64,000 bases of DNA from Candidatus Obscuribacteraceae bacterium (GCA_044229845.1 JBGASG010000002.1:617130-681129); one strand, 5' to 3'. Positions 38,463 to 56,543 are shown, numbered from the stretch's first letter. Made by a program: numbers and translations. The notes: generated by a model not told the origin, from the sequence alone.

Positions 38463-38478
38463 GCACCATATATGGTGC
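38463..38478. promoter_or_regulatory. Perfect 16-bp palindrome, possible operator for the AbrB-like gene
   Basis: GCACCATATATGGTGC, 60 bp upstream of the ATG at 38539. Confidence 0.5.
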
Positions 38479-38538
38479 TACTCGCCCTGCCTCGCAAAAT
38501 AAACTTCTCCCCTAACAGAGCAGACATAAACATCATTC

Positions 38539-38817
38539 ATGCCAGACCTTTCTTCGATAAGAAGTCTCACAGTCACCAGCAAGGGGCAAGTCACGCTTTC
38601 CTCAACCGCACGCAAACAGCTAGGCATCGAGCAGGGCACCGGTTTGATAGAAGTGATTGTCGGTGACTGCCTGGTGTTGCTCCTCGAGTCTACCGTCATC
38701 GAACGGATCAGCAGTGACGCACAGGACGCCGCCAAAACAGTCAACGAGCATTTAGAAACCATCGTAGCCGAAGCGCGAAAGCAGCGAGCAAGCGACGGCA
38801 ACTCCTCCCACGAATAG
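38539..38817 (+). CDS. AbrB/MazE/SpoVT-family DNA-binding protein
   Basis: TVTSKGQVTL...RKQLGIEQG swapped-hairpin signature. Confidence 0.8.
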   Translation: MPDLSSIRSLTVTSKGQVTLSSTARKQLGIEQGTGLIEVIVGDCLVLLLESTVIERISSDAQDAAKTVNEHLETIVAEARKQRASDGNSSHE

Positions 38818-38834
38818 CGGGGCCGGCGGCACTT

Positions 38835-39083
38835 ATGGTACCCCTGAGCTTAGAGCAGCTTTTGCAGTTGGCCGCGGAAAGCGAGTCCAACAATGACCCG
38901 CTCAAGACCGAGGAGTACTTCCAGGAAGCTGTTAGCGCGGCAATCAAGAACGAGGATCCTCTCCAACTCCAGCAAGCTTACCGGCAATTTGCAGCCTTCT
39001 TGCGCAGACAGAAACGCGAGGACGAAGCGATCACACTGGAGAAGATTGCAGAGGTCTGCTCGAATCGTCGCATAGATCATTAG
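38835..39083 (+). CDS. Small TPR-like hypothetical protein
   Basis: EEYFQEAV...AYRQFAAFLRRQKREDEAITLE. Confidence 0.55.
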   Translation: MVPLSLEQLLQLAAESESNNDPLKTEEYFQEAVSAAIKNEDPLQLQQAYRQFAAFLRRQKREDEAITLEKIAEVCSNRRIDH

Positions 39084-39129
39084 GTTAGACGGATCGGATC
39101 GGCGTAAGTGAGCGCTTGCTTTAAGCACA

Positions 39130-40098
39130 CTAGAGGTGTGTGATGCCGCGGTCGATCAGGTTCTGAATTGCATCCTGCCATTCAGGAAAAGTCTCGAAGC
39201 CTGGACCAGTTTCGATCAGTCCATTGGCACCGATTTGAAGCCGAAGTCCTTTAAGGAGAACTTGCTCCAAATGCGGTGGCATGTCCGCAACTATTTCTGC
39301 GGGTCGCCGGATGTTCACAATCGGACTGAGGAAGTATTGTCCAACGTTTTCGTATCGCTTGGCCCAGGCCCGGACACTGTCCCCGGTGGCCGGCGAGCCC
39401 GCATCGTCGGGCATAAGCATCGGATGTTGTTTGCAAGCCACCTCCCACAGAATGATTCCAAACGCCAGCAAGTCATCCGGCTTCAAGAGGGGATAGTAAA
39501 TTGGAGTCGTCAGTGCACAATCGAGCCCCTGTCCTTCATCGCAGTGAAGTGGTCCGAACCAGCCCGGGTCGATGAGCCTGGGTGGCTGATCATCGACGAA
39601 TATGTGCTCGGGCTTTAGGTCGCCATGATACTCACCAGCGTTTCTTGATTGATACTTGCTCAATAATCCGAAAAGCTGCACAAACGAACTTACAGGGACT
39701 CGCTCCGCTCGATTCAATAGCTCTCGAATTGTCGGCGCCTCGATAACATCCATGGGATACATGGGAAGCCCCTGTCGCACTTCATAGTGTGAAATCCACG
39801 GGTAACAGCCGTAGTAGCCGTATTGCATCGACCGATTCTGCAAAGATAGAACCAGTGCCGTGTCGGGATGGACAGTGATTACTGCACCCTCAGTGATGGC
39901 ATGAGTTCGAGTTTGAAACTGTGACTTTACTGTAGTTGTCCGATCAAGTTCCTTGGCGATTTTCACGGCTACTCGAGTACCGTCATTTTGGTTTTCTGCC
40001 AGGAAGATCCGCGAATAGGTTCCATCGGCAATTTCTGCTTTGCAGACAAAATTGCCAACGAGCTGCAATCCGACTAGTGTTTCTGATGCTTTTAGCAT
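39130..40098 (-). CDS. Atypical protein-kinase-fold protein, array copy K5
   Basis: ADGTYSRI, VAVKIAKE, YHGDLKPEH, LIDPG, DLLAFGIILWE. Confidence 0.88.
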   Translation of the reverse strand: MLKASETLVGLQLVGNFVCKAEIADGTYSRIFLAENQNDGTRVAVKIAKELDRTTTVKSQFQTRTHAITEGAVITVHPDTALVLSLQNRSMQYGYYGCYPWISHYEVRQGLPMYPMDVIEAPTIRELLNRAERVPVSSFVQLFGLLSKYQSRNAGEYHGDLKPEHIFVDDQPPRLIDPGWFGPLHCDEGQGLDCALTTPIYYPLLKPDDLLAFGIILWEVACKQHPMLMPDDAGSPATGDSVRAWAKRYENVGQYFLSPIVNIRRPAEIVADMPPHLEQVLLKGLRLQIGANGLIETGPGFETFPEWQDAIQNLIDRGITHL

Positions 40099-40099
40099 G

Positions 40100-41068
40100 C
40101 TAGATGTGTGTGAGGCCGCGGTCGATTAGGTTTTGAATTGCGTCCTGCCATTCGGAGAAACTGCCGAAGCCTGGACCAGTTTCGATTAGTCCGTTGGCCC
40201 CAACCTGAAGCCGCATGCCTTTGAGGAGCGTCTGCTCCAAATGCGGTGGCATGCCTGGAATCAGTTCGGCAGGTCGTCTGATATTCACAATCGGGCTCAG
40301 GAAGTATTGCCCGACGTTTTCGTATCGCTTTGCCCAAGCTCGGACACTATCCCCGATGGCCAGCGAGCCCGCATCTTCGGGTATCAAGAACGGATGCTGT
40401 TTGCAAGCCACCTCCCACATCAGAATTCCAAGCGCTAGAGAGTCATCCGGTTTCATCAGCGGATAGTAAGCTGGTGTACTGAGTACACAGTCAAGCCCCT
40501 CTCCCTCGCGACAATTCAGAGGTCCAAACCATCCTGGATCAATGAAACGGGGCGGACCCTCCGTAACGAATATGTGTTCTGGCTTCAGATCGCCATGCCA
40601 TCTATCGGACGCCTCGATCTGTTGCCTAGCCATCAGCTTGAACAACTTTGCAAAAAACCCGAGCGAGATCGATTCCCCTCTATCCAAGACTTGTCGAATT
40701 GTGGGCGCTTCAAGAAAGGCTAGAGGATACATAGGAAGTCCCTGCCGCACTTCGTAGCGCTCAATCCATGGATAGCAGCCATAGTATCCGTATTGCATCG
40801 AATGATTTTCCAACGCAAGAACCAGCGCTGTGTCCGGATGGACATCGAGTACACCACCCTCAACTACGGCGTAGGTGCGAGTTTGAGAGTGCGACCGTGC
40901 TCCAGTAGGTCCTTCAAGTTCTTTGGCGACTTTCACGGCAACCCTATCATCATCGCGCTCGTTCTCCGCCAGAAATATGCGAGAGTACATCCCGTCAGCA
41001 ATTTCAGCCTTAACGACATAATTGTCGACGACTTCCAATCCGACTAGTGTCTCTGAGGCTTTTAGCAT
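40100..41068 (-). CDS. Atypical protein-kinase-fold protein, array copy K4
   Basis: VAVKVAKE, WHGDLKPEH, FIDPG; start at the ATG at 41068 by homology with the other copies. Confidence 0.88.
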   Translation of the reverse strand: MLKASETLVGLEVVDNYVVKAEIADGMYSRIFLAENERDDDRVAVKVAKELEGPTGARSHSQTRTYAVVEGGVLDVHPDTALVLALENHSMQYGYYGCYPWIERYEVRQGLPMYPLAFLEAPTIRQVLDRGESISLGFFAKLFKLMARQQIEASDRWHGDLKPEHIFVTEGPPRFIDPGWFGPLNCREGEGLDCVLSTPAYYPLMKPDDSLALGILMWEVACKQHPFLIPEDAGSLAIGDSVRAWAKRYENVGQYFLSPIVNIRRPAELIPGMPPHLEQTLLKGMRLQVGANGLIETGPGFGSFSEWQDAIQNLIDRGLTHI

Positions 41069-41069
41069 G

Positions 41070-42041
41070 CTAAAGATGTGTGATGCCACGGTCGATCAAG
41101 TTCTGAATTGCGTCCTGCCATTCAGGAAAACTCTCGAAGCCTGGTCCAGTTTCAATCAGTCCATTGGCACCAATTTGAAGGCGTAGTCCTTTAAGGAGAA
41201 CTTGCTCCAAATGCGGTGGCATGTCCGCAACTATTTCTGCGGGTCGCCGGATGTTCACAATCGGACTTAGGAAGTATTGCCCAACGTTCTCGTATCGCTT
41301 TGCCCAGGCTCGAACACTATCCCCAACGACCCGCGGGTCCGCATCGTCGGGCATAAGCATCGGATGCTGTTTGCAAGCCACCTCCCACATCACTATTCCG
41401 AACGCCAAGAGGTCGTCCGGCTGCAGAAGCGGGTAGTAGATCGGAGTCGTAACGACGCAATCTAGCAGGGTTCCTTCCGCACAGTTCATCGGAATGAAGC
41501 AGCCTGGATCAATCAAAGTTATGTATCGGTCCTCGACTAAGAAAATATGTTCCGGCTTTAAATCCCCATGAACCTTGACTGGCGATCGTGTCCTCTGCTT
41601 CTCAAGTCGTTCTGCCAGGTTTGCCAAAAAGAGCAGGTCAATCCCTCGTCCTTCATTGAGGCGGCTTCGAAGAGTTGGCTCGCTGATGAACTGCATAGAA
41701 TACATCGGCAATTCGTCCTCATCAGAGTACGGACCAACGTCGACGAAAGTCGGATGGTGGCTATATGCAATCGCACGCTGTTGCTCGCGGAGAATTTCGG
41801 ATGTACTCGGATTGACCGGAAGGACAGCGCCTTCGATGATCGTGTAGCAGCGGGTTTGAAAGGGCGAGTACACAGGATTCTCATACTGAGCTTCTTTGGC
41901 CACTTTAATGACTTGTCTGTCAGTTTCATCGGAGTGCAATTCTGTGAGGTATAGACGCGAATAAGTTCCATCAGCGATGACGCTTTTGACGACATAGCTG
42001 CCAGCACGTAAACCGATCAGTGTCTCTGAATCTTTGAGCAT
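41070..42041 (-). CDS. Atypical protein-kinase-fold protein, array copy K3
   Basis: QVIKVAKE, VHGDLKPEH, LIDPG. Confidence 0.88.
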   Translation of the reverse strand: MLKDSETLIGLRAGSYVVKSVIADGTYSRLYLTELHSDETDRQVIKVAKEAQYENPVYSPFQTRCYTIIEGAVLPVNPSTSEILREQQRAIAYSHHPTFVDVGPYSDEDELPMYSMQFISEPTLRSRLNEGRGIDLLFLANLAERLEKQRTRSPVKVHGDLKPEHIFLVEDRYITLIDPGCFIPMNCAEGTLLDCVVTTPIYYPLLQPDDLLAFGIVMWEVACKQHPMLMPDDADPRVVGDSVRAWAKRYENVGQYFLSPIVNIRRPAEIVADMPPHLEQVLLKGLRLQIGANGLIETGPGFESFPEWQDAIQNLIDRGITHL

Positions 42042-42043
42042 AT

Positions 42044-43012
42044 CTATATGTGTGTGATGCCGCGGTCGATCAGGTTCTTAAGGGCATCTTGCCATTCGAG
42101 AAAACCATTGAAGCCCGGTCCAGATTCGATAAGCCCGTTCGATCCGATCTGAAGTCGAAGTCCTGTGAGAATCACTTGCTCCAAATATGGTGGCATATCA
42201 GGCACCAGTTCGGCGGGTCGTCTTATGTTCCGAAGCGGGCTGAGAAAGTACTGCCCAACGTTTTCGTATTGCTTTGCCCAGGCATGAACGCTGTCGCCAA
42301 CGATTCGGGAGTCGCTGTTGTCCGGCATCAACAGCGGGTGTTGCTTGCAGGCGATCTCCCAAAGCATAATCCCAAATGCTAACGAGTCATCTGGCTTCAT
42401 GAGCGGGTAATAGATGGCTGTCGTGACAGCGCAATCGAGCTCGCGGCCTTCCTCGCAATTCAATGGATCGAATCGTCCCGGAGAAATGAATGCCGAATAG
42501 TTGTCCTCCACTGCAAAAATGTGTTCGGGCTTCAGATCGCCGTGGTGGCGAACAATCGACATTCTCTGCTTTTCGAGATTCTTGCAGACATGGCTGAGCA
42601 GACTCATACTGATCGGAATTCCATCATCAAGTAGAGTTCGTAGGGTCGGTACCTTCATGAACTCCATGTTGTACATTGGAAACCCATGCCTTAATGAGTA
42701 GTCGCCAACCGATACGTAGCAGACGGTCGAACTATATCCAATGGCGTACTGCTGTTCTCTGACAACCTCCAGCGTGCTCGGGTGGACCTCCGTGACGCCG
42801 CCTTCGAAAACACTGTAGCACTGTGTTGCAAATGGAGACACGGGCTCTTGCGTACGGTCCATTTCTTTGGCAACTTTGATGGCTACCAAGTCCTGAGTGA
42901 TTTGATTTTCGGTCAAGTAAATGCGTGAAAAGGTTCCGTCGGCGATCAATTTTATGACGACATAGTTGCCGACAACCTTCAGTCCTATCAGTGATTCCGA
43001 TGCTTTAAGCAT
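42044..43012 (-). CDS. Kinase-fold protein, probable pseudokinase, array copy K2
   Basis: VAIKVAKE, HHGDLKPEH, FISPG (no DFG Asp). Confidence 0.88.
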   Translation of the reverse strand: MLKASESLIGLKVVGNYVVIKLIADGTFSRIYLTENQITQDLVAIKVAKEMDRTQEPVSPFATQCYSVFEGGVTEVHPSTLEVVREQQYAIGYSSTVCYVSVGDYSLRHGFPMYNMEFMKVPTLRTLLDDGIPISMSLLSHVCKNLEKQRMSIVRHHGDLKPEHIFAVEDNYSAFISPGRFDPLNCEEGRELDCAVTTAIYYPLMKPDDSLAFGIMLWEIACKQHPLLMPDNSDSRIVGDSVHAWAKQYENVGQYFLSPLRNIRRPAELVPDMPPYLEQVILTGLRLQIGSNGLIESGPGFNGFLEWQDALKNLIDRGITHI

Positions 43013-43013
43013 G

Positions 43014-43979
43014 CTAAAGATGTGTAATGCCGCGGTCGATCAGGTTTTGAAGTGCGTCCCGCCATTCGGAGAAACTCTCGAAGCCTGGACCAGTTTCGAT
43101 TAGGCCGTTGACACCAACTTGAAGCCGCATTCCTTTGAGAAGCACTTGCTCCAAATGCGGTGGCATACCCGGCACTAGTTCCGCGGGTCGCCTTATGTTC
43201 CGAAGAGGGCTGAGAAAATACTGCCCAACGTTTTCGTATCGCTGTGCCCAAGCTCGCACACTGTCCCCAACGACCGACGAGCCCGCATCGTGAGGCATCA
43301 ACAGGGGATGTTGTTTGCAAGCTATCTCCCAGAGCATAATTCCAAATGCTAACGAGTCATCCGGCTTCATCAAAGGGTAATAGATGGCTGTCGTGACAGC
43401 GCAATCGAGTTCGCGCCCTTCCTCGCAATTCAATGGATCGAATCGCCCAGGAGAAATGAATGCCGAATAGTTGTCCTCCACGAAAATATGCTCAGGCTTG
43501 AGATCGCCGTGGTATTGAACAATCGATACCCCTATTTTTTCGAGTTTCTTGCATATGTAACTGAGTAGAGAGACGCTGATTGAACTGCCCTCAATCAGCA
43601 GTGTCCGAAGAGTCGGCAAGGTTATGAACTCCATATGGTACATTGGAAATCCATGTCTCTCCTCGTAATGCCCAATCGATATGTAACAATCACTTGGACT
43701 GTATCCGATAGCACTCTGCTGTTCCCGCACAACTTCCAGCGTACTCGGGTGAACCTCCACGACGCTGCCTTCGACGACGTTATAGCATCGCGTTGCAAAT
43801 GGAGATGTAGGTTCATGTGTGCGGTTCATTTCTTTGGCAACCTTGATGGCTACCAAGTCCTGAGTTTCTTCATCTTCCGTCAGATAGATACGCGAAAACG
43901 TTCCGTCGGCGATCAATTTCGTGACCACATAATTGCCGACAAACTTGAATCCAATCAGTGTTTCCGATTCTTTAAGCAA
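43014..43979 (-). CDS. Kinase-fold protein, probable pseudokinase, array copy K1
   Basis: TTG start at 43979 by homology (LLKESETLIG), GGAG upstream; VAIKVAKE, YHGDLKPEH, FISPG. Confidence 0.88.
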   Translation of the reverse strand: MLKESETLIGFKFVGNYVVTKLIADGTFSRIYLTEDEETQDLVAIKVAKEMNRTHEPTSPFATRCYNVVEGSVVEVHPSTLEVVREQQSAIGYSPSDCYISIGHYEERHGFPMYHMEFITLPTLRTLLIEGSSISVSLLSYICKKLEKIGVSIVQYHGDLKPEHIFVEDNYSAFISPGRFDPLNCEEGRELDCAVTTAIYYPLMKPDDSLAFGIMLWEIACKQHPLLMPHDAGSSVVGDSVRAWAQRYENVGQYFLSPLRNIRRPAELVPGMPPHLEQVLLKGMRLQVGVNGLIETGPGFESFSEWRDALQNLIDRGITHL

Positions 43980-43986
43980 GTGGCAC

Positions 43987-46900
43987 CTACTCCAGTCTTC
44001 CATCACCGGACACTCGATCTCTCGCTTCAAATCCTTGCTTCCTAGATCTGTGCATCGCAGCTGTCCAATCCATTAACACTACTCTTCCTTGAGCATCGCG
44101 TCCAAACTGAGTATATTTCATGTCTGCAACTTCGATTCCATCTTTAGCCATTGTTCGGACAAGCTCGTCAACGTCCCTCACATCCTGCAGATTTCTCGGG
44201 TTGCAGGTTTTGCAAGGCTCTTGCACATATATGAAGCTCTTGGTCGCAGCGATCTCCACTGGCGTAATCTCCGTTATGGCCCGAGCTTCCCAATAGTTGA
44301 CTCCAGTCCCAGTCTTTTGATCAAAGTAAGCAAATTCCCTATCCGGCTCCGTCAACTTCAAGAAACCGCCATGTTCCAACACTGTACCGTTGTAGACCGA
44401 CCCGGGCTTCAGGTTCACACAAATAGATTCTCCTCCCAAAAGGATATCGCCTTCCGTTACCTGAAGATTTAGATATTCAACCTCTTTTGCCAGAGCCCAC
44501 AGTCTCTTTCGATGAACACCCCTAACGTCTTCCTGCAAACCCGGAATGATTTCTGGCCGCGCCAGTGCTTCTCTGAGCCAAAGTGAGAGATTCTTCGGTT
44601 TTCCATACACAACCTGCGAGCCGATCTCACCGCGGGACTGGAGGAGTTCCTCAAGTCGAGAAGAGAGCCTTGGGAAACTGGCTGCTCCGTCCGCAGCTTT
44701 TTCAAGTGCACTTTCATTGATATCGATCAGGCGGCTATCATCGACGATGCACCATCGATCCCCAATTTTGCCAAACTCGACCAAGCCTCGATTTTTGCGG
44801 AGTTCGAGGTTGTTTTGTTGAGCGAATTCCGTCAGCATATCTATCACGCCACGAGGTGGTGCGCCAGCTTTCAAATCGACGAACTCTTGGACGTAAACTC
44901 GGGCTCGATAGCCGCCTCCTAAATCAACTAACTTAGGCGCCGACAATTGATGCGGTAGATAAGGTAGAGCCGGAATCGCCTGAAAAGTTGACTCATTGCT
45001 GACTTCAATTTTCAGTGTTGACTTGTTCGCGAAGGTCTGTCCATCAACTCGCGTTCCAACAGGTAGATCTACCAGAATTGCTCCATTGGAGGCGTGAATA
45101 TCGGAGCCTCTTACCTTCAAATCGCATTGAGAGAATACTCTGCTGAGCTCGAGAAGATGCCTATCCTCTGGCAGATGTTGCCACTCGTCCCGACCAAGAA
45201 AACTCTCCCTCCCTGCAGACAAATGCAGCAACCAACTCGCAAGTTCTTTTTGTGACTTGCCATCTGGATATCGCTCGACAAGGTTCATCTCGGTAAGGAA
45301 TTTTCGGAGAAGCTCGGAGGGACCTCTCAGCAGATCGCTGAGTTGTTCCACGCCGTACTCCCGAGTGCTCAATTTGGCAATAGCCTCAGCTGATATCAGG
45401 AACCGCCAATCACAGTCTCGACTTCTCGCTGGAAGTTCCATCACCGAAAATTGGGGTGGTGGTCGCAGTGGCTCGGGATGTGCTTCGGGCGTTTTGATTC
45501 TTTCGACTTTTTCCGCCGGTTGTTCCTGCTGGTTGGAGGAGACACGGTCATGTTCCGGCTTAACAGCAGATGCTGGCAGCGCAGGTTTCTCCGCAGTAGA
45601 GCGTGGTGGCGCAACCTTCTCCGACACAACCGGCTCAGGTGGAGTCTCGATCTTCACTGGCTCCCGACGCCCGTGCACCAAGTCATCAAGGTCGTTCACG
45701 AACGCGGCGTGATTTCTGACTTTGCCATCAGCTAATTGCTGCATATGAAAGTTGAAGTCTTTGACGACCGCCTCGTATTCCTTCCAGTTCTTGGTCTTCG
45801 CGGCGTTATCCGTGACCTTTGCTGCCAGCCCTTCGAGTCTCTCAACTTGCTGTGGTGTCAGCCCCAGCTCGGCGCGCACCGAACCGACTCGTCTTGCTTG
45901 CGCAAGCAGGCGAACATGGTCTGTAAACTCTATATATGAAGTCGCGTTCTTATCCAGTCTGGCGGCAGCAAGTTCCGGCAAGTTCCGCAGCAGCTGCTCC
46001 GGGCTGACGCGCATGACGACCGCGTCCTTCTTGAAGAGCACCAACTCACCGGAATGCTGATCGCGCGAGCGAATCTGCCAGCCACTATCAATGGTGCCAT
46101 CCGGCTTGCGCAGGTGCACGCTCTCGCCGACCTTCAATTGTAATCCGGGATTAGCAGCCAGCAAATCCTTCTCATTGATGGTCATGGCGCCATCGTGCAT
46201 GATGGTGACTTTGCCATCCTTGCCGACGGTCTTCACGACAGTCCAACCCGACTCGCCTTCCAGCGCTACGTTTGCGCCCAGCTCCAGCTTTGCAGGCGAC
46301 ACACCAAACCTGGACTCCGCCGGCATCTGGGACGCTGCCTTATATCTGTCGTGACGCGCCGAGTAGAAGTCTCCGTGCGTGCCTTGACGGGGATCGTAAA
46401 TGCGGTCGCCCGACTGCACCCACATGTGGTTGACGGTATTGCTGCCGTCGGCACCATTCCCGGTGACCAGCCTGAAGTGCGCCTGCGGCAGCAGTTCGTC
46501 GCCAAGGAACTTCAGCAAAACAGCTTGCTGTGTGCACGAGCCGGTTCCGCGTTCGATGAACTCACCAAGATTGACGCGCTTGCCGCCATTCGCCTTGATG
46601 AATTGCATGTAGTTGGCGTCCGCGATGGACTGGACTTTGTCGCCCGGAACCGCGGTTTGCATGAACTTCGACTCGACGAATTGAGTCAATCTGGCTTGCT
46701 GCTGTTCCGCAGTGAGGTTGTGGTATCTGCCCATGTAGGCGCGTGCTTCATCAAGGGTTTTCTGCAGCACCTTGTCGTTAGGCAGGTCTACTACCGTCGC
46801 GGCAAATGGCGACGAACTGGAACCATCCGCGCTTACATACCTGCCTTTTCCAGCGAGGGTGAATCCCGGCTGCAGCGGCTCGCCGATTTCGCCCCTGGTT

Positions 46901-49900
46901 TGCAGCTTGTTGGACTGCGCCCGCGCCTCCGGCATGATCGGCGCCGCATCAGCAGCGACAGGTGAGCCCTTGAATGATGAGAGATCGAGTTGGTGCCCTC
47001 CTTCCTTCAAGCGGGGACGCAGGTCTACCTTGTCGTTCGGACCAAGAACATAAGGACGATCTGCTACCCACTCCTTGCCATTAGCAAATTGGATGACGGT
47101 TCCCTTACCTACAATCAACTCTCCGTGAGAGTCTCTGGCGAGCAAGACGTGAGGCGGTTCTATGTGCCCGAAGAGTTTGCTGGCCAATGCGCTCGTCACG
47201 CCGAAGACCTTGTACATCACCGCGCCTTGCACGGCTGACTGCGGCAACGAACTCAACAGGTCATCCGAACTGACCAATCCGGCCGCTTCCTGCACGGATT
47301 CGCCGGCGACATTGGAGAGCGCGGCGCCGGAGGCGTTTCTCAACAGCTGTTCTGCCTCCAGCCTGCTGACTGCGCCTTGCTTTATATTGGCTTGCAGTTT
47401 CTCTAAGATAGCTTTCTCAAGCACAGGATCAACGCCACCATCAACAGTGACCTGCTTGACCAGTTTGTCGATGGCATCCTTCGTATGCTTGCCGCCTGCG
47501 ACAGCCTGTACATCGGTCAGATCCTGAAGTCCCCTGGAGATGATTTTCTCCGCGTCAGGTCTCAGTGCGCTAACGCCCTTCTGGGTAACGGCTTCCAGCG
47601 CGGCTCGCTCTGCAACCTTCTCGCTGATGCGAAACGCTCCGGTCAAGCCGAAGTGTTCCGGTCCCACCACAGCGAGCGGTCCGACGAGCGCACCTTCTAC
47701 TCCATACTTGACCAGACCTTCGCGATCAAGTTTGGCGGACTTACCCTCGTACAGCGCGTGCACACCAATACTGGTGGCAGCGCCACCGGCGCTGCTCGTT
47801 ACGAGGAAGCCGATGGTCACCTCCGGCACCAGCAAAGTTGCAGCCATCGTGGCCAGCGTGACGCTGCTATCTACAAGAGCCTTGGCGGCACCACTCTTGG
47901 AGTTGATGTAGTCTTTCTCAGCCTGATAGTACTTGTTGAGCGCTTCATGAAACTCCTGGCGCTGCTTCTCCGTAACATTCGACTTGCCGTATTTGGCGAG
48001 AACACGATCGGCTTCGTCGAGTTTCTCATCGGCAGCGATTTGCGACCGATCCCAGATGCGTTCGTGAACACCATCTGCCAGCGAACCGCTCTTATCCGCA
48101 ACGTGGCGAGCGTCGATCAATTCTTGTTGCGGTGTGACGCCAACGTTAGACAGCAGATTGCGGAACGCGATTTGATCCGTCGGTGGCATCTTGTCCAACA
48201 CGTCCTTGCCCATGTCACGATGTCCATACTTGTTGAAATATGCGTGACTGGCGTCGCGGATCTGGGTTGGAGTCAAGGTGGACAGATATTCGCGCAGCCC
48301 ATCCTGACTGTCGCCGGCGCCGACCGCGAAAGCGCGCAAGCGATCTTCCGGGTGCATCGTCTCCAATGACTTTTCGGGAGGACTCTGCTTCATCATCCGC
48401 AGAAGAAACTCTCGTTTCTCGCCCGTACCCAGTAGCTTGTCTTGAACTTCGATGTCTTTCGGGTCAAGCGGATGCGGATCGAGCAGGCGTTCTCGGTCTT
48501 GGGCTGAGGCTCCCAAAATGTCCTTCATGACACGAGAGTTATCCGGCAGGAGCGTCTCCGAAATGCGGATAGGTAATCGACCAGTCTGCATGAATGAGTC
48601 AAGCAATGTCTGGTGACTTTCCTCCGGGAAGCCTGCGCCAAATGAAACACCATGCATTCGCGATTCCAGAACATTTTTCAATTCGGTGTTAAACCTGGCA
48701 ATTGACTCGGCGTCTTTTCGGGCGGCCGCGTCTTTCTCAGTTGCGGCAGGTTTTTCGGCTACGGTAGGTTTGGCACCGCGAAAGCGTGAGGGATCCTCAT
48801 CAAATGCTTTTTCGATATTGGCAAATCCAACCAGACCCTTCTCCCCGTGGAGTTGATCCAATAACACCCTGTCAAAGGAATTGACCGGCGGCTTGCCGTC
48901 CCTGATGTTGCGAAGAACATCTCTGGCAAGTTCTTGTTCTAACCCGGGCTGCAGGTGCTGAGACACCAGGTTATCCACCGTTGTCCTAAACTTAACGTCC
49001 TTCCGATAGTCATCTTGCTCCGACGGTGACATGTGGGCAAGTGCCTCGACCTTTGCAGCCGCCTTGCCATGACTGTTGAACACTGAGGCGAACGCGTGAT
49101 CAAGCAGATTCTCTTCGTTGCGTTTGAAGACGTCGGCGACTTTAACTTCCGTCTTGCGCCCCAGGAGCGCATTCTCCCATGCATCAAGCTGAGCCTTGTC
49201 GTTAAAACCTGAGGCTTCGTTGAGAGCTTCATGGATATCTTTGTAGTAGCGGCTGATTCGCTGCTCGTAAGGCTCTTTAGGACCAATACCGCCGGTGGTG
49301 AATTCGTGATGACCTTCCTGGAACAGCTTTCTCTCTTCAGGCTCGACATGCGCGATCGCATCTTCGATGAGCGCCTTGTTAGTGCGAAAGATGCGTCCAT
49401 TACCTTCGATGCGCGAAGCCAGACTCAGGTGCCCGAACTGTGCATAATCCTGCGCGGTGGAAAGTTCGAGCGGATCGGTGAACACCTTTTGCAGGCGCTC
49501 CATCCCTGCGGGAGTACTGAATTCCTTGCGAGCCTCCGGATTTAGTTGCATCGCCTCCATGAAGATGTCCAGGCGATGATGTCGCAACCCGATTTCGGCG
49601 AGTTGCTTGGCGAAGGTAGGAGGATTGCCTTCCAATTTGTCTTTGCCGTTGAGGAGCACATGGATCGCTTCCTTAGTGGCAGTCGACAGATGGGGATTAT
49701 CAAATTTCAGATTTAGTTCGGCAATCTGTTTGGAGTCCAGCTTCTGCAGCGTATGCAGAATAGACTTCTCGGCGGTTGCGTGATCATGTTCGTCATTGGC
49801 GTTTTGCCAGATGTTAAAGCCATGCTGGTCGAGGCGCGAACCAGTATCAGTGACTGTGCCGAGGTTGCGCGCCAGCGCGCCGGCGAAATCCGCCACGGTG

Positions 49901-50946
49901 TCGTTGCGATGCAGCACGGCTTGCAATTCTGCGACAGCCTCCTGATTGCCCTTCAGCTTGTCAGCGATGTCCTGCGAGAGATCGTGATTGGTGCGGTGTT
50001 TGTATTCCGCCATGACCTGCTGCCGCTGCACCGGCGACAGTGTTTGCAGTATGTTGAGCATCGAATTGACATTCGGCTCCTCAGCGTTGAGGTGCCAGAT
50101 ATTGTGTTCGTTCAGTGCCGCAGTCACTGCATCGGTGCGGGCCGCCACTTCTTCAGGAAACAGCAGCGTCTTGTCTTGGTGCACAGGCGTGCTGTCCCAC
50201 CGCGGAGGGGCCGGGACTGCATCGCGATGCTGCGTTACGTCATGTGCTACCGGAGGATGTGGAACCGCGTCATGTGGAACAGTCGGGACTGGAGACGCAT
50301 CATGCGGGCGAGTTGGATGTGGGGACCCGCCATCATGCGGCCCGTGTTGTGGTGCAGCATCCTTGTGAGTTGTCTGCGCGTTCGGATTGATCAGCTTATC
50401 GACCTCACCGGTCACGGCTTGCTGCGCCGCGGTGAGAAACGACCCTGCCTTCTTCAACATGTATTCGATTGAGTAGTTCGCCTTGATCTCTTCTTCGTGC
50501 GCAGACGAAGTAGCGGTCTTCAGGAGTTTTTGCAAACCATCCATGAACGACGCCCGCGGAACGTGCCGTTCTCCCTTGGATGAGTACTCTTTGCCTTCTT
50601 TTTTGTCTTCGATGACAAATTCGGAGACCGCAGCGGGTCCTGTCTTCTGCCCATCGTGGTGGGCATTGACACGATTCATCAGCGCTTCCAGTGCCTGATC
50701 GCTTTCGCTGGGTGGATGAGACTTCGCCAGATGCCCATCTCGTGACCGCTCTACATGGCCGCCGCCCTGCTTGGGCAATGTCCTATCGTGCCCGCCGGAG
50801 AACGTGGAAAACTTCTTCTCGTACTTGGCGGCCTGTGGCTCATTAGTCACATTTTCGGCAGCAGACTTGCTCGACGCAGCGTTACTCTGCCCGTCGTCCT
50901 TGACGTGATCCGGCTTCTTGTCGGGTTGTTTCTCGCCGCGGGTCAT
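43987..50946 (-). CDS. Giant multidomain protein (2319 aa): annexin-like repeats, hydrophobic segment, EDR1/transglutaminase-like domain, tandem C-terminal kinase-like modules; polymorphic-toxin-like
   Basis: Uninterrupted 6960-nt ORF; motifs described in the findings. Confidence 0.85.
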   Translation of the reverse strand: MTRGEKQPDKKPDHVKDDGQSNAASSKSAAENVTNEPQAAKYEKKFSTFSGGHDRTLPKQGGGHVERSRDGHLAKSHPPSESDQALEALMNRVNAHHDGQKTGPAAVSEFVIEDKKEGKEYSSKGERHVPRASFMDGLQKLLKTATSSAHEEEIKANYSIEYMLKKAGSFLTAAQQAVTGEVDKLINPNAQTTHKDAAPQHGPHDGGSPHPTRPHDASPVPTVPHDAVPHPPVAHDVTQHRDAVPAPPRWDSTPVHQDKTLLFPEEVAARTDAVTAALNEHNIWHLNAEEPNVNSMLNILQTLSPVQRQQVMAEYKHRTNHDLSQDIADKLKGNQEAVAELQAVLHRNDTVADFAGALARNLGTVTDTGSRLDQHGFNIWQNANDEHDHATAEKSILHTLQKLDSKQIAELNLKFDNPHLSTATKEAIHVLLNGKDKLEGNPPTFAKQLAEIGLRHHRLDIFMEAMQLNPEARKEFSTPAGMERLQKVFTDPLELSTAQDYAQFGHLSLASRIEGNGRIFRTNKALIEDAIAHVEPEERKLFQEGHHEFTTGGIGPKEPYEQRISRYYKDIHEALNEASGFNDKAQLDAWENALLGRKTEVKVADVFKRNEENLLDHAFASVFNSHGKAAAKVEALAHMSPSEQDDYRKDVKFRTTVDNLVSQHLQPGLEQELARDVLRNIRDGKPPVNSFDRVLLDQLHGEKGLVGFANIEKAFDEDPSRFRGAKPTVAEKPAATEKDAAARKDAESIARFNTELKNVLESRMHGVSFGAGFPEESHQTLLDSFMQTGRLPIRISETLLPDNSRVMKDILGASAQDRERLLDPHPLDPKDIEVQDKLLGTGEKREFLLRMMKQSPPEKSLETMHPEDRLRAFAVGAGDSQDGLREYLSTLTPTQIRDASHAYFNKYGHRDMGKDVLDKMPPTDQIAFRNLLSNVGVTPQQELIDARHVADKSGSLADGVHERIWDRSQIAADEKLDEADRVLAKYGKSNVTEKQRQEFHEALNKYYQAEKDYINSKSGAAKALVDSSVTLATMAATLLVPEVTIGFLVTSSAGGAATSIGVHALYEGKSAKLDREGLVKYGVEGALVGPLAVVGPEHFGLTGAFRISEKVAERAALEAVTQKGVSALRPDAEKIISRGLQDLTDVQAVAGGKHTKDAIDKLVKQVTVDGGVDPVLEKAILEKLQANIKQGAVSRLEAEQLLRNASGAALSNVAGESVQEAAGLVSSDDLLSSLPQSAVQGAVMYKVFGVTSALASKLFGHIEPPHVLLARDSHGELIVGKGTVIQFANGKEWVADRPYVLGPNDKVDLRPRLKEGGHQLDLSSFKGSPVAADAAPIMPEARAQSNKLQTRGEIGEPLQPGFTLAGKGRYVSADGSSSSPFAATVVDLPNDKVLQKTLDEARAYMGRYHNLTAEQQQARLTQFVESKFMQTAVPGDKVQSIADANYMQFIKANGGKRVNLGEFIERGTGSCTQQAVLLKFLGDELLPQAHFRLVTGNGADGSNTVNHMWVQSGDRIYDPRQGTHGDFYSARHDRYKAASQMPAESRFGVSPAKLELGANVALEGESGWTVVKTVGKDGKVTIMHDGAMTINEKDLLAANPGLQLKVGESVHLRKPDGTIDSGWQIRSRDQHSGELVLFKKDAVVMRVSPEQLLRNLPELAAARLDKNATSYIEFTDHVRLLAQARRVGSVRAELGLTPQQVERLEGLAAKVTDNAAKTKNWKEYEAVVKDFNFHMQQLADGKVRNHAAFVNDLDDLVHGRREPVKIETPPEPVVSEKVAPPRSTAEKPALPASAVKPEHDRVSSNQQEQPAEKVERIKTPEAHPEPLRPPPQFSVMELPARSRDCDWRFLISAEAIAKLSTREYGVEQLSDLLRGPSELLRKFLTEMNLVERYPDGKSQKELASWLLHLSAGRESFLGRDEWQHLPEDRHLLELSRVFSQCDLKVRGSDIHASNGAILVDLPVGTRVDGQTFANKSTLKIEVSNESTFQAIPALPYLPHQLSAPKLVDLGGGYRARVYVQEFVDLKAGAPPRGVIDMLTEFAQQNNLELRKNRGLVEFGKIGDRWCIVDDSRLIDINESALEKAADGAASFPRLSSRLEELLQSRGEIGSQVVYGKPKNLSLWLREALARPEIIPGLQEDVRGVHRKRLWALAKEVEYLNLQVTEGDILLGGESICVNLKPGSVYNGTVLEHGGFLKLTEPDREFAYFDQKTGTGVNYWEARAITEITPVEIAATKSFIYVQEPCKTCNPRNLQDVRDVDELVRTMAKDGIEVADMKYTQFGRDAQGRVVLMDWTAAMHRSRKQGFEARDRVSGDGRLE

Positions 50947-51049: not shown

Positions 51050-51472
51050 CTACGCGCGGACTGCGGACACGTGCCCGTCTTTCGCGTAGCGCAAAAGTCT
51101 CCGGTCACGAGTGACCACGACCGCATTTTCCATCCTGGCCGTGGCAACAATCAGACGATCAGCCGGATCCTGGTGCAAATCACCAGGTAAATAACAACTG
51201 TCTAGAGCAATTTCAGCATTGAGCGGCACCAAGCTAATGCCCGGCTGATTCAAAGCCTCGCGGACCCAATCGCGCGGATCCTTTTGCAGCACAAGGCGTC
51301 CCTTCAACTCAAGCGTCGCTACTTCCCAAACACAAATCGCAGGAATTAGAACCGCTCCCATCCTCGCAGCATCGTCGATTAGAACGCGGATGCGGGGCGA
51401 CAGCTGCAAGTTGCCGTCCACTAGCCAGATCCAAACATGTGTGTCGAGAACAACCCGCCGGCGCTCAGCCAT
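51050..51472 (-). CDS. vapC: PIN-domain VapC toxin
   Basis: VLDTHVWIW...ICVWEV...HQDPADRLIVATA...VTRD. Confidence 0.93.
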   Translation of the reverse strand: MAERRRVVLDTHVWIWLVDGNLQLSPRIRVLIDDAARMGAVLIPAICVWEVATLELKGRLVLQKDPRDWVREALNQPGISLVPLNAEIALDSCYLPGDLHQDPADRLIVATARMENAVVVTRDRRLLRYAKDGHVSAVRA

Positions 51473-51704
51473 TTGACTCCCATGCGTCGTCTGTAGGCTC
51501 GATAATGTCCCCGTAGGTCTTCACCGAACCCTTCATGCATCCGAAGAGGCTTTGCCACTCCTCGTCACAAGGAACGAGTTTTGCAATAGGCTTGCCTCGC
51601 TTTGTTATGACAATCTCGCGGCGCTGCTGCTGCACCTTGTCCATAAGTTGCAGGCACTTGGCTTTAAACTCGCCAGCTGCTACGTGCTCAGTTCCCTTCT
51701 TCAT
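51465..51704 (-). CDS. Phd/YefM-family antitoxin
   Basis: AGEFKAKCLQLMDKV...IVITKRGKPIAKLVP; overlaps the toxin start; start placed at the ATG at 51704. Confidence 0.92.
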   Translation of the reverse strand: MKKGTEHVAAGEFKAKCLQLMDKVQQQRREIVITKRGKPIAKLVPCDEEWQSLFGCMKGSVKTYGDIIEPTDDAWESNG

Positions 51705-51710
51705 TGAAAT

Positions 51711-51742
51711 CACCATGGTCACATGTCCATGGTCATATTATA
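51711..51742 (-). promoter_or_regulatory. TA promoter -10 box and operator-like repeats
   Basis: Minus strand TATAAT-atGACCATGG-acatgt-GACCATGG; CCATGG and ACATGT palindromes. Confidence 0.6.
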
Positions 51743-51764: not shown

Positions 51765-52583
51765 TTACTGCGGACCACCCGGTCCACCGGGACCTCCCCC
51801 AAATCCGCCGCCTCCGCCGCCGAATCCGCCGCCACCAGGTCCGCCGCCTTGCATGCGCTGTTTGCGCTGCTCTCTGAATTGTTCTAGCTTCGCCTTCTCA
51901 GCGTCGTCCAGCACACCGTCGCCGTTGGCGTCGAATTTCTGCATCATGCGCTGATACATCGGTCCGCGCTGTCCACCACCACCGCCGCCGCCACCGTTCC
52001 AATTCACCACTCCGTTGCCACCACCGGCGCCACTAAAGCCACCTGGTCCGCCTTGCCCACCAAAGCCACCGGGACCGCCCTGTCCGCCGAAGCCGGGACT
52101 GCGGAAACCGGGACCGCCCTGTCCGGGTCCACCGCCGCCACGGAAACCGCCACCGCCCTGACCACTAAATCCCCCACCGGGACCTCCCTGACTGCCAGGT
52201 CCACCGAAGCCGCCGGGCGGTCCTCCGCCCTCGGCCGCTCGTTTCTGCAACCATTCTTGCAGCTTGCCTTTCTCCTGGTCACTGAGAACGCCATCGCCGT
52301 CGGCATCAAATTTTTGCTTCAGACGTTCGCGCATGCCGCCGCCCTGCCCACCGCCTCCACCGAACTGTCCCCCGCCGAACTGCCCGCCACCAGGGCCGCC
52401 GCCGTTTCCGAATCTCGGTCCGCCATCCTCACTCATCGGAGGCGGTGATTGCCCGGGAGGTCCGGGCGGAATTCCAATCGACGATTCGATACCAGATGCG
52501 GTACCGCTCCCCGGATCAGCCTTGACCGCAGGGGCTGCGGACAACAAGACAGTAACTGCCAAAAGGAAAAGCCTGCTTCTCAT
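51765..52583 (-). CDS. Exported Gly-rich protein with two EF-hand-like loops
   Basis: Signal peptide from the ATG at 52583 (GGAGA upstream); KFDADGDGVLSDQE and KFDANGDGVLDDAE; GGPGG repeats. Confidence 0.85.
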   Translation of the reverse strand: MRSRLFLLAVTVLLSAAPAVKADPGSGTASGIESSIGIPPGPPGQSPPPMSEDGGPRFGNGGGPGGGQFGGGQFGGGGGQGGGMRERLKQKFDADGDGVLSDQEKGKLQEWLQKRAAEGGGPPGGFGGPGSQGGPGGGFSGQGGGGFRGGGGPGQGGPGFRSPGFGGQGGPGGFGGQGGPGGFSGAGGGNGVVNWNGGGGGGGGQRGPMYQRMMQKFDANGDGVLDDAEKAKLEQFREQRKQRMQGGGPGGGGFGGGGGGFGGGPGGPGGPQ

Positions 52584-52602
52584 GGTAATGTCTCCAACGC
52601 AA

Positions 52603-54309
52603 TTAGTACTGCATAAACTCGGGACTGCCAATCAACGCGGCAGTCTTTTGATAGTCGGGCACGGCAGCGATAGCCTGCTGCGTCTTGAGTGATAATCTGC
52701 CACCATTTACGGTGCTTTGAATCCATCGATAATCCAGCGGCTGGGCCCGCCGTTGCGCCTGCCCCAGCTTGGTCGCGAACTCCATTCGCTTCATCAGTCC
52801 ATCGGGATTGAGCCATGTCTCCCGCGTGTTTTTGTAGCCGTCCGGTGTCTGGCACTGATAGAGCGGCTGCCCCTGCTGATTCAAGAAGAGTTGAATCTTC
52901 AGAGCAGAACCTGGGTCCGAGAGGTGCATATCCGTGGCGCGCAACGCGGAAATCGTATATCTATATGGATTCTTGAACTTGCAGTTGCGATACTGGGTAT
53001 CCCAAAATTCAGTGCTCGAAAATAGTGTGACCAGCACCGACTTTATGTTTCCCCGCGTCTGCATGAACTTGGTTGAAAGTTTGTCAACGAGACTTTTAGG
53101 TGGTTCGTCCGCTACAAAATATTGGGCCAGTTGATAACTGACGTGCCGCGCGGTCGATGGATGGCGCGCCAGCATATCCAGCACTTGCTCGATTTCATCG
53201 CGTCCTGTGCCACGAATTGTTTGCCCCAACACGACCTTATCGCCAAAGTCGTGACGGCGCTGATCGAAGAATGCACCATAACCACCGTCAGTTATCAGGT
53301 TTTTCCGCATTGCAGGCGGCATGCCCCACCCGGTGAGAACCCGTGCCAGCTCTTGCACGTCTTTCTGTGTGTATCCACCATCGACGCCCATGGTGTGCAG
53401 TTCCAGCAGTTCGCGCGCATAGTTTTCGTTGATACCATTCTTCGGATCGTTAGGATTGAGTGATTTAAATCCCGCCTTACTGTTTTGCGCGTTATCGAGA
53501 TAGAACATCATGGCGGGATGGTGCATGGTGGCACCGAGCAGATCTCTGAAGTTGCCCATTAAGTGGGGGCGGATTGCTTGCTCTTCGTAGGCACCAACCA
53601 GTACTCTATCCATGCCTTTCGACATCGCAACATTGAAATGATTGAACCAGAAGTCAGTCATAACTTCCTGCAACTGTCGGGGACTTTCCACCGCGCGTAC
53701 AAGTCGCGTCTTAATCACGCCTTGCTGAAAGCCATCTCTAAATGGACTGCCACCACCTTGTTGTCTCTGTGGCAATTTATTACCGCCAGGACCGAATTCT
53801 TGAATCTGCAACTGCGGCAACGGCGCCATCGCGGTCTGGTCCATCTGTCCCGATTGCTGCCCCTGCTGCTGTCCCGATTGCTGCCCCTGCTGCTGTCCCG
53901 ATTGCTGCCCCTGCTGCTGTCCCGGTCGCTGCACCGCCTGCTGTCGCGGCTGCTGCCCGCCGTCCTCACCTTTCTGTCGCGCCTGCAATTTGCGAATCTG
54001 GTCAAAAAAGACAAGCATCAAATCCGCTGACGGCTGACTAATCTGTGGAGTCTTCTGAACCTGATCGATCACAATCGTCGACTCAGGGATGCTCGAAGGC
54101 TGCAGTTGCATCTCGATGTATTTCTGAATGCCAATCTGCCTGACCTTTTGTATGTCACCAGGTCTGGCGCCCATCGTCAGCCTATTAAGTAGATGGACGA
54201 TCTGTTCATCAGTCGCGGCCGCCGGCTGTTCGCTGGCACCCTGTTTCGTGCTCGCCTGGACCGGCGCCAGCACCAATAGCCAGGCTAGAAGAAGGCTAGT
54301 AAATCTCAT
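52603..54309 (-). CDS. DUF1800 family exported protein
   Basis: HLLNRLTMG, QLQEVMTDFWFNHFNV, NENYARELLELHTMG, SPEF C-terminus. Confidence 0.92.
   Translation of the reverse strand: MRFTSLLLAWLLVLAPVQASTKQGASEQPAAATDEQIVHLLNRLTMGARPGDIQKVRQIGIQKYIEMQLQPSSIPESTIVIDQVQKTPQISQPSADLMLVFFDQIRKLQARQKGEDGGQQPRQQAVQRPGQQQGQQSGQQQGQQSGQQQGQQSGQMDQTAMAPLPQLQIQEFGPGGNKLPQRQQGGGSPFRDGFQQGVIKTRLVRAVESPRQLQEVMTDFWFNHFNVAMSKGMDRVLVGAYEEQAIRPHLMGNFRDLLGATMHHPAMMFYLDNAQNSKAGFKSLNPNDPKNGINENYARELLELHTMGVDGGYTQKDVQELARVLTGWGMPPAMRKNLITDGGYGAFFDQRRHDFGDKVVLGQTIRGTGRDEIEQVLDMLARHPSTARHVSYQLAQYFVADEPPKSLVDKLSTKFMQTRGNIKSVLVTLFSSTEFWDTQYRNCKFKNPYRYTISALRATDMHLSDPGSALKIQLFLNQQGQPLYQCQTPDGYKNTRETWLNPDGLMKRMEFATKLGQAQRRAQPLDYRWIQSTVNGGRLSLKTQQAIAAVPDYQKTAALIGSPEFMQY
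53845..53916. repeat. 24-bp intragenic tandem repeat x3 (QQGQQSGQ)
   Basis: ctgtcccgattgctgcccctgctg at 53845, 53869 and 53893. Confidence 0.92.
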
Positions 54310-56300: not shown

Positions 56301-56543
56301 GTGCTGCGCACGACAATCTATCTCCAAGAACACACTGCTCTTGCTCTGCGGCACCTGGCAGAAGCCGATGGCATAAGCCAGGCAGAGATCATGCGTACTG
56401 CCATTGAGAATTATGTTGAACAGCTCGAACAGCAACGGACTCGCACGCTCCCACCAGGCGCTGGTGCGTATCGAAGCGGGAGAAATGATGTTTCTCAAAA
56501 GGCCGAAGAGCTGTTGAGAAAGCGCGCCAGATCGCGCAAATGA
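56301..56543 (+). CDS. Ribbon-helix-helix (CopG-like) antitoxin
   Basis: RTTIYL...LRHLAEADGISQAEIMRTAIE; ATGA overlap with the PIN gene. Confidence 0.87.
   Translation: MLRTTIYLQEHTALALRHLAEADGISQAEIMRTAIENYVEQLEQQRTRTLPPGAGAYRSGRNDVSQKAEELLRKRARSRK

Follow-up and report, generated by a model that had tools for sequence, protein, structure and literature searches.

The stretch of DNA discussed here, 64,000 nucleotides (nt) of one strand from Candidatus Obscuribacteraceae bacterium (GCA_044229845.1, JBGASG010000002.1:617130-681129), belongs to a genome (G000) of 5.16 Mb that is 88% complete and has a GC content of 0.555. We refer to the whole stretch as 'the window', and coordinates count from its first letter. 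Its main feature is a row of six genes, all on the minus strand. The first, P0001, encodes a giant protein; the five that follow downstream encode smaller, paralogous proteins that we call K1 to K5. The giant combines annexin-like repeats, a transglutaminase/papain-like domain and a C-terminal tail that is predicted to be kinase-like, and the K proteins are related to protein kinases. The gene module that these represent (a giant annexin/transglutaminase-like protein plus a dedicated kinase) appears to be previously undescribed, and comes from the non-photosynthetic sister group of Cyanobacteria; full-text literature searches, whose coverage excluded subscription journals, found no paper describing it. 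At this locus, the module seems to have been caught in the course of diversifying, by an allelic swap of the giant's tail and by five-fold amplification of its pseudokinase-like partner.

The original prediction, made from the sequence alone, was of a 2319-amino acid (aa) gene ending 7 nt before five packed paralogues of ~322 aa, and the open reading frames (ORFs) and the gaps between them bear this out (Table 1). The intervals giant/K1, K1/K2, K2/K3, K3/K4 and K4/K5 measure 7, 1, 2, 1 and 1 nt, respectively, with junctions of the form TAG-C-ATG. K1 lacks an ATG at the place where K2–K5 start, and begins instead with a TTG 7 nt past the TAG of the giant. The array is not an artefact of assembly, because an independent sludge run (X12) yields contigs that cross from the giant into K1, and from each K gene into the next, with zero differences. 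Another run, X15, has zero cover over positions 44382-44849. Contigs from RNA libraries, 150–322 nt in length, map to K5, the K4/K3 junction, K3, the K1/giant junction and the tail, with carry-over of DNA a possible source. A scan for promoters and terminators is uninformative about the limits of the operon, because shuffled sequence yields as many sites. Nearly the whole stretch recurs in metagenome runs, from sludge, bioreactors and related sources, of at least 13 studies, some of which are perhaps its own source; since the organism is this common in activated sludge, material for experiments should be accessible.

Table 1. Principal features of the window, with positions counted from its first letter
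Feature	Position	Strand	Description
Giant gene (P0001)	43987..50946	-	single ORF, 2319 aa, ATG start
K1	43014..43979	-	321 aa, TTG start
K2	42044..43012	-	322 aa
K3	41070..42041	-	323 aa
K4	40100..41068	-	322 aa
K5	39130..40098	-	322 aa
Giant: N-terminal leader, residues ~1-215	50302..50946	-	motifs EPQAAxYExKF..FSG and PRxSFMxGL..(F/Y)SI(D/E/A)Y..(K/R)KA
Giant: annexin-like repeat region, residues ~270-1000	47947..50139	-	PF00191 and weak PDB annexin matches
Giant: hydrophobic segment, residues 1029-1050	47797..47862	-	Kyte-Doolittle 19-residue window peak 1.83
Giant: transglutaminase/papain-like domain, residues 1340-1550	46297..46929	-	triad C1471, H1507, D1518
Giant: small beta-barrel domain(s), residues ~1549-1659	45970..46302	-	Tudor/SH3/KOW-like, weak
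Giant: helical and Pro-rich linker, residues 1660-1829	45460..45969	-	ends at recombination breakpoint
Giant: variable C-terminal module, residues 1830-2319	43990..45459	-	two minimal kinase-like domains, predicted
PIN toxin	51050-51472	-	PF01850, E 1.8e-15
Phd/YefM antitoxin	51465-51722	-	PF02604, E 4.3e-8
AbrB-like ORF	38539-38817	+	weak TIGR01439 match
TPR and caspase domain protein	32771-34174	-	Peptidase_C14, E 7.7e-24
Apolipoprotein-like repeat protein	1312-4920	-	1202 aa
Apolipoprotein-like repeat protein	6655-8076	-	473 aa
Gly-rich protein	51765-52631	-	two EF-hand-like motifs
DUF1800 protein	52603-54309	-	E 3e-131
Second PIN-domain gene	56540-56959	+	
AAA_14/DUF4143 ATPase	62270-63391	-	

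Judged by their sequences, K1 to K5 are divergent Ser/Thr kinases of the Hanks type, the catalytic motifs of which have eroded. Taken singly, they miss the Pfam cut-off for PF00069 (13.9–20.9 bits against 31.7; E-values 2.6e-4 to 0.036), but kinase homology is nonetheless clear, because at the level of the family 15 of 18 members match PF00069 at E <= 0.01 (best 1.7e-15), and a 12-member profile finds Hanks kinases among solved structures at E 1.6e-17. Bacterial Stk/PknB-type kinases, ULK3 and NEK1 are the best of these matches. K2–K5 share 60–80% identity with K1; over the final 120 residues, all five are almost the same. Across the first 205 codons, synonymous sites are saturated in most pairs and omega, the ratio of nonsynonymous (dN) to synonymous (dS) substitution, is ~0.14; the duplicates are therefore old and constrained, and not decaying. 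The C-terminal third has lower dS (0.4–0.9), which fits gene conversion among the copies.

The consensus of the K family comprises GxGxFS, a beta3 Lys, HGDLKPxN and DPG, and it is mostly kept outside the K1–K5 clade. Within the clade, if these positions have the roles that we assume for them from kinases in general, erosion is uneven. The beta3 Lys and the Asp of HGD are present in all five proteins; in all five, too, the first Gly of the Gly-rich loop is lost and the Asn of the catalytic loop has become His. K1 and K2 have Ser at the position equivalent to the DFG Asp, which K3, K4 and K5 keep as the Asp of DPG. None of the five possesses the full set of Hanks catalytic residues, and K1 and K2 are probably pseudokinases; the earlier description of the array as one of kinase-fold (pseudo)kinases is thus supported. 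PADLOC models for PD-T4-6 match K1–K5 at E 1e-7 to 1e-9 (the best at 1e-8 to 1e-9), over about half of the model or less, and often over no more than its first 40–50 residues; with most models, the match is confined to the N-lobe. K5 also matches TCAD9 weakly (E 0.05), this being a kinase-like domain of conflict systems. A sixth paralogue, K6, is located elsewhere in the genome on contig C14 (L038 = G000:C14:14000-30000). It shares 33% identity with K5. No giant lies closer to it than 7 kb, and its neighbours include genes for a ferritin/rubrerythrin-like protein, an alpha/beta hydrolase and a dual-specificity phosphatase.

The tail of the giant is a different matter. No sequence tool recognized a kinase in its last 470–490 aa, and BLASTP found no similarity between it and K5. 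That the giant is 'kinase-tipped', as was first proposed, is a conclusion drawn from structure prediction. In an AlphaFold2 model of the tail (predicted local distance difference test score, pLDDT, 81; predicted template modelling score, pTM, 0.72), two domains of ~190 aa each can be discerned: domain A (~1900-2084), which is degenerate, and domain B (~2118-2310). The latter has a complete complement of catalytic-type residues, carrying GGES (2171-2174), K2197, D2275, QFG (2280-2282) and D2293, which are invariant in five of five aligned homologues. Foldseek matches the model to the JAK, TYK2 and EGFR-KDD tandems (E 8e-5 to 1e-3) and, with PknB and Rio2 included, over a range of E 8e-5 to 5e-3. 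The VIA search, which is independent of Foldseek, returned kinases, pseudokinases or kinase-like phosphotransferases as all 50 of its 50 listed matches, for both halves of the tail, at Z 5.8–7.4. Because these Z values are middling, it is the unanimity of the matches, together with the motifs, that carries the assignment of fold. The fold models used in this work were built from alignments of 5 and 16 sequences.

In the five-sequence alignment, the tail presents as a tandem repeat. BLASTP of one half against the other gave only 11 residues shared by overlapping query pieces, so the relatedness of the halves is visible in alignment and model only. With its two lobed kinase-like domains, of which the first lacks catalytic residues, the predicted tail is reminiscent of the JH2-JH1 pair of JAK and TYK2 and of other kinase-domain duplications; it is unlike them in that the resemblance is structural only (Foldseek E 8e-5, ~10–12% identity), and in that its domains are far smaller. 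Relatives of the tail number four representatives among 1.84 billion proteins, and a scan of metagenomes with the tail alignment added no relative. G000 and its sister species, G001, have one tail each, and no orphan tail fragments were found in either genome. The neighbours of domain B according to a protein language model (small phage proteins, and APH, YrbL and T7-kinase clusters, with scores of 0.92–0.96) are leads only; the closest families that have names are kinase-like and small. Prediction of a complex between tail and K1 scored 0.00 in a run without controls, and speaks neither for nor against binding. The tail has a GC content of 0.499, and values for the tail and the K genes lie between 0.49 and 0.52, against 0.562 for the rest of the giant.

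The remainder of the giant is a succession of dissimilar parts. The N-terminal leader matches no Pfam family. It heads seven other proteins of G000 (300–1136 aa, with unrelated C-termini; L140-L146), and a profile made from it finds matches in 11 of 61 genomes of the bacterial family, with 12 in G001 including the orthologue of the giant. A JAB-like HxHPH motif is present in two of the leader-bearing G000 proteins. Three of them lie in tandem on contig C15 with a small ORF after each, and some adjoin Pkinase+TPR or TPR-only proteins. The leader is followed by the annexin-like region, in which one repeat (residues 294-336) matches PF00191 at E 4e-9 and 36.8 bits, above the cut-off of 25, and a second stretch (869-920) gives a weak match to an annexin in the PDB (E 0.03). 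Relatives of the giant have up to four annexin stretches, at E-values down to 3e-29. Compared as a whole with solved structures by sequence, the giant gives weak annexin matches only, and NCBIfam contributed nothing useful for it. Past the repeats lies the giant's only hydrophobic segment, present in P0007 and absent from P0003 and P0004; it might be a membrane helix, but the indication is weak.

The transglutaminase/papain-like domain scores 17.9 bits against PF14381 (EDR1_CTR1_ARMC3_pept), below the cut-off of 27 that two relatives, P0009 (41.5) and P0008 (28.7), pass. Among 12 homologues, the Cys of the triad is kept in 10, and the His and the Asp in all 12. An AlphaFold2 model of the region (pLDDT 78) matches TglA (Z 8.5), factor XIII (Z 7.9) and LapG (Z 7.4) in the VIA search, and nothing at E <= 0.001 in Foldseek. 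The domain thus resembles the LapG and TglA cysteine proteases in its Cys–His–Asp triad and its predicted fold, and differs from them in its low identity (~11–16%), its lack of periplasmic targeting, and its position embedded within a giant protein. The barrel region, as modelled, is Tudor/SH3/KOW-like at Z ~5.2–5.7, with the tandem Tudor of 53BP1 as a Foldseek match at E ~1e-2.

Comparison with the orthologue in G001, which is of the same genus, reveals where variation is concentrated. This protein, P0002, is 2296 aa long. In blocks of 100 residues, the two giants are 93–100% identical as far as residue 1800 (~99% overall), except for an indel of 23 residues near position 730. Past residue 1800, identity falls to 26–63% per block, and the last 490 residues are 46% identical. 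Residues 1-1800 have a dN of 0.010 and a dS of 0.136, and residues 1830-2319 a dN of 0.50 with dS saturated. Similarity between the nucleotide sequences ends at window position 45458, in the Pro-rich linker, and between the proteins it falls after ...EPLRPP. From these comparisons, we conclude that the tail was replaced as an allele by recombination, and did not diverge in place. Nor is the tail intrinsically faster to evolve, because the body and tail of a distant orthologue, P0007, are equally diverged (~30–40% identical in each). The indel corresponds to a stretch rich in Lys, Ala and Glu (residues ~727-749; window ~48700-48770) that is present in G000 and absent from the G001 orthologue.

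The arrays of the two species also differ. That of G001 contains three kinases, in the order K5-type, K1-type and deleted K3-type; the K2 and K4 types are missing. The first of the three is the orthologue of K5 (94% nucleotide identity) and the second the orthologue of K1 (97%). The third, at L031:13856-14710, is an orthologue of K3 from which 39 aa, comprising the Gly loop and the beta3 Lys, have been deleted in frame, leaving the frame open. The idea behind the original prediction, that C-termini and downstream genes swap together, holds in part: the tail is swapped, at 0.010 versus 0.50 in dN, and the first kinase after it is of K1 type in one species and of K5 type in the other. A swap of tail does not bring with it kinases of another family, however; the same K family lies on both sides of the comparison, and both species hold K1 and K5 types. 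Between K orthologues (window 39130-43979 versus L031:11919-14710), N-terminal dS is 0.02–0.04 as against 0.136 for the body of the giant, a difference that may reflect K genes having been exchanged or converted recently between the two species. In the C-terminal part of K5, dS from its orthologue is 0.5, and this suggests that K5 is a mosaic gene.

Outside the genus, kinase and giant can be followed further than the tail can. Genes of the K family are present in 16 of 24 other genomes of the same bacterial family and in none of 16 elsewhere in the class; for giants the figures are 18 of 24 and 1 of 16, often with several copies per genome. In G021 and G007, the giant is tail-less and stops just past its peptidase and barrels; the next gene, 0–50 nt on, is a K gene. 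In G003, the end of the giant and the start of a K gene share 4 nt. In G014, G011 and G019, a small ORF and then a medium one stand between giant and K, and the giants are evenly ~36% identical over their full length. At a second locus in G001, K is upstream of the giant. Thirteen metagenome loci were found with the peptidase domain, and eight of these have a K-family ORF (7 of 12 if the identical L156 and L157 are counted once), one of them on the opposite strand and one 1.8 kb off; of the five without, two have ~1.1 kb or less of sequence after the giant. All 13 lack a tail, and each has at most one full K-family gene. Because K genes follow tail-less giants, linkage of giant and kinase must be older than the tail and independent of it.

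Loci that do bear tails have more kinases. Three such loci have a known context, and their K genes number 5 (G000), 3 (G001) and 2 (G087); all other giant-linked loci have one. At the G087 locus (L136:10611-17002, minus strand), the tail occupies a separate frame of 430 aa, which overlaps the end of a 1751-aa giant by 154 nt and is followed by four kinase genes, two of the K family and two canonical. One G087 kinase matches TCAD9 at E 2.2e-5. The separate tail frame could be due to a frameshift, a split gene or a sequencing error. In a phylogenetic tree, the kinases adjoining tail-bearing giants form one clade (support 100/99), within which the G087 pair represents an independent duplication. 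Amplification of K, and erosion of its motifs, are confined to this tail-linked clade; in G087, the Lys has become Asn.

Relatives of the giant also carry further domains. FHA domains, in two or three stretches, are present in those of G021 and G003 and in P0008, P0010 and P0011, and other members of the family have RHS repeats, LysM or Transglut_core domains. Giants in G087 and G009 have canonical kinases and TPR proteins as neighbours, as do other proteins that bear the leader. A canonical Rhs interpretation of the paralogous giants was considered and rejected: 11 giants lack the core motif DPxG[LW], and those of G014, G011 and G019 are uniform to their ends.

The interpretation that we tentatively favour is of a giant–kinase signalling module, ancestral in the bacterial family, that has become a diversifying locus in this genus, and in which the K proteins may serve as regulatory or pseudokinase partners of the tail. 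We rank it first because K genes with canonical motifs follow tail-less giants, because relatives have FHA domains, because kinase and TPR genes lie near leader proteins, and because peptidases of the PF14381 type are described in PMC10318531 as often being fused to kinase domains in eukaryotes. A kinase signalling set scaffolded by the giant was the alternative in the original prediction, and it is the FHA domains of the relatives and the peptidase–kinase fusions that make it the better fit. On this interpretation, the K proteins would work with the giant, in phospho-signalling or as pseudokinases, and would not be immunity proteins of the classical kind. They would bind the giant's kinase-like tail, or be phosphorylated by it, as a pseudokinase–kinase pair or a short cascade, and would thereby gate the peptidase/transglutaminase activity of the giant at a membrane bound by its annexin repeats. 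A swapped tail accompanied by amplified partner kinases is typical of genes in biological conflict, and, with the distinct composition of the tail-plus-kinase block, it would suggest that the conflict is between organisms. If K proteins do gate or neutralize the tail, this would amount to a bacterial form of control, or of immunity, in which pseudokinases act against a kinase-like effector.

Two kinds of known system bear on the signalling module. The first comprises pairs of Hanks-type kinases and proteins with phospho-threonine-binding FHA domains, of which the PpkA-Fha1 pathway of type VI secretion is an example. Like these, the module has a Ser/Thr kinase gene next to a large partner, and among relatives the partner has two or three FHA domains. 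Unlike them, the locus in the window has no gene for a PP2C phosphatase nearby, and its kinase is five-fold and partly degenerate. The second comprises the plant EDR1/CTR1 proteins. The module shares with these (PMC10318531) a peptidase-like family, into which P0008 and P0009 fall, and the order of peptidase then kinase. It differs in that peptidase and K kinase are separate genes, in its giant annexin-repeat backbone, in the solved kinases that the K profile matches best (bacterial Stk/PknB-type, ULK3 and NEK1), and in the sub-threshold score of its own peptidase domain. This split peptidase-then-kinase order may bear on how the EDR1/CTR1 architecture of plants originated.

Several observations weigh against a signalling module. 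The giant of G000 has no FHA domain. K genes also occur with no giant nearby: K6 is one, and others lie at L041 and L043, each inspected over 10 kb on either side. The tail alleles compared come from a single pair of species. A sharp C-terminal swap on a near-identical backbone, with packed genes behind it of which the first differs, is the signature of a polymorphic toxin locus, and plain signalling does not predict it. A leader that is shared by 8–12 otherwise different proteins per genome looks, by analogy, like a trafficking domain. And annexin-like repeats, RHS in paralogous giants and a peptidase preceding a variable tail all fit the grammar of toxins set out in PMC3482391.

These points lead to the explanation that was originally put first, which is of a polymorphic toxin with immunity proteins of kinase fold. 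The giant would be exported, its peptidase would free the tail as a toxin, K1 would neutralize this toxin, and K2–K5 would be orphan immunity proteins against the tails of neighbours. The tail would then be a polymorphic effector, and the K proteins immunity proteins or decoys: pseudokinases descended from an ancestral partner kinase that neutralize or soak up the tails of self and neighbour, and are exchanged between species as an acquired repertoire. We regard this as unlikely, though several points favour it. The breakpoint is sharp and dN jumps ~50-fold across it. The first K differs between the alleles, and each species retains the other's first-position type. Erosion of catalytic residues under purifying selection fits binders and not enzymes, and the K3 of G001 has stayed open despite losing its Lys. 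The tail and K genes form a block with its own base composition; the low dS of K orthologues relative to the backbone is compatible with recent exchange; and the leader is common to many proteins. In such systems, according to Zhang, Aravind and co-workers (2012; PMC3482391), annexin accessories, releasing peptidases and kinase toxin domains have all been described.

The architecture is, accordingly, like that of polymorphic toxins in having a large repeat protein, a peptidase before a C-terminal domain swapped by recombination, closely packed downstream genes, and, among members of the giant family, both annexin and RHS repeats. A variable C-terminus behind a conserved body is found here, in one species pair. 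The architecture is unlike theirs in what accompanies the giant. Pfam and NCBIfam scans of the window's proteins turned up none of the known Imm, trafficking or pre-toxin domains, and the giant has no evident signal peptide. Searches of the 88%-complete genome for PF04984 (contractile sheath), PF03135 (VirB4) and PF05943 (TssC) returned 0 matches each, and so no gene of a type VI or type IV secretion system or of a contractile sheath; the absence of visible secretion genes, remarked on at the outset, extends to the genome for these families. The downstream genes belong to one family of 322-aa kinase-fold proteins which, with its canonical motifs, also follows giants that have no tail. Orphan tail fragments were not found in the two genomes, and just three tail-bearing loci have a known context. 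The toxin and immunity reading is partly supported, then, by the tail swap, its sharp breakpoint and the change of first kinase, and is opposed by the K genes behind tail-less giants and by the lack of secretion machinery. If it were true, this would be the first toxin–immunity pair with a kinase fold on both sides.

Less probable again, in our estimation, is that conflict is not involved, and that the giant is a structural or membrane-organizing scaffold with attendant kinases. The tail would then have come by chance gene conversion from a paralogue since lost, and the array would be a neutral amplification. The annexin-like repeats and large size of the giant are what a scaffold might display; the giants of G014, G011 and G019, with no variable end, fit as well, and the K genes are under ordinary purifying selection. 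Against chance, amplification coincides with the tail in two independent lineages, all five K copies are open and constrained, and the catalytic residues of domain B are invariant in five of five aligned homologues.

We consider it decidedly improbable that the giant and its kinases are effectors that act on a eukaryotic host or prey by mimicking proteins of the host. The set of domains is certainly eukaryote-like (annexin, EDR1-type peptidase, kinases), and the giants are multi-copy, fast-diversifying, and largely restricted to one bacterial family (18 of 24 genomes, versus 1 of 16 elsewhere in the class). The relatives are Obscuribacterales, and the class to which these belong includes a known algal predator. 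Nevertheless, no secretion system was found among those searched for, the FHA domains and nearby TPR-kinases point to signalling in the bacterial cytoplasm, and literature searches on predation in this group, and on its giant and annexin proteins, found nothing pertinent. Least probable of all, and very much so, is an anti-phage defence built on Ser/Thr kinases: the PD-T4-6 and TCAD9 matches and the flanking toxin–antitoxin genes speak for it, but PD-T4-6 matches, mostly to the N-lobe, are what any two kinases would give, no PADLOC model matches the giant, and the surroundings are those of housekeeping genes and not of a defence island.

The flanks differ somewhat from the first description of them. 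A vapBC pair had been reported upstream of the giant; the PIN toxin is there, but its partner belongs to Phd/YefM and not to VapB. The PIN gene keeps the same position in G001, and no pair of PIN/Phd type lies beside the giants of other genera at the loci examined. We regard the pair as a neighbour that may not belong to the system. On the other side, beyond K5, the AbrB-like gene reported as a flank corresponds to a weak TIGR01439 match only (E 7.7e-4; 19.1 bits against a cut-off of 28.3). Past the last kinase in G001, a single ORF of 162 aa lies on the operon strand (L031:14733-15221). Its counterpart in the window (38478-39128) is split into ORFs of 92 and 107 aa, overlapping the plus-strand AbrB-like ORF and a TPR-like one, so that either strand may be the coding one.

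The wider window consists of housekeeping genes, among them those for Lon, ClpX, trigger factor, alanine racemase and an ABC exporter. A few other genes merit mention. One codes for TPR repeats joined to a caspase domain, an architecture common in bacterial conflict or cell-death systems. Two encode proteins with amphipathic-helix repeats of the apolipoprotein kind (PF01442, E ~2e-13, below the cut-off), and one of these also has a phasin-like stretch. Upstream of the Phd/YefM gene is a gene whose Gly-rich product has a hydrophobic, signal-like stretch at its N-terminus and a pair of EF-hand-like DxDxDG motifs, of which one reaches the Pfam cut-off; this gene adjoins the gene for the DUF1800 protein, and both occupy the same place in G001. 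Further along are a second PIN-domain gene and one for an AAA_14/DUF4143 ATPase.

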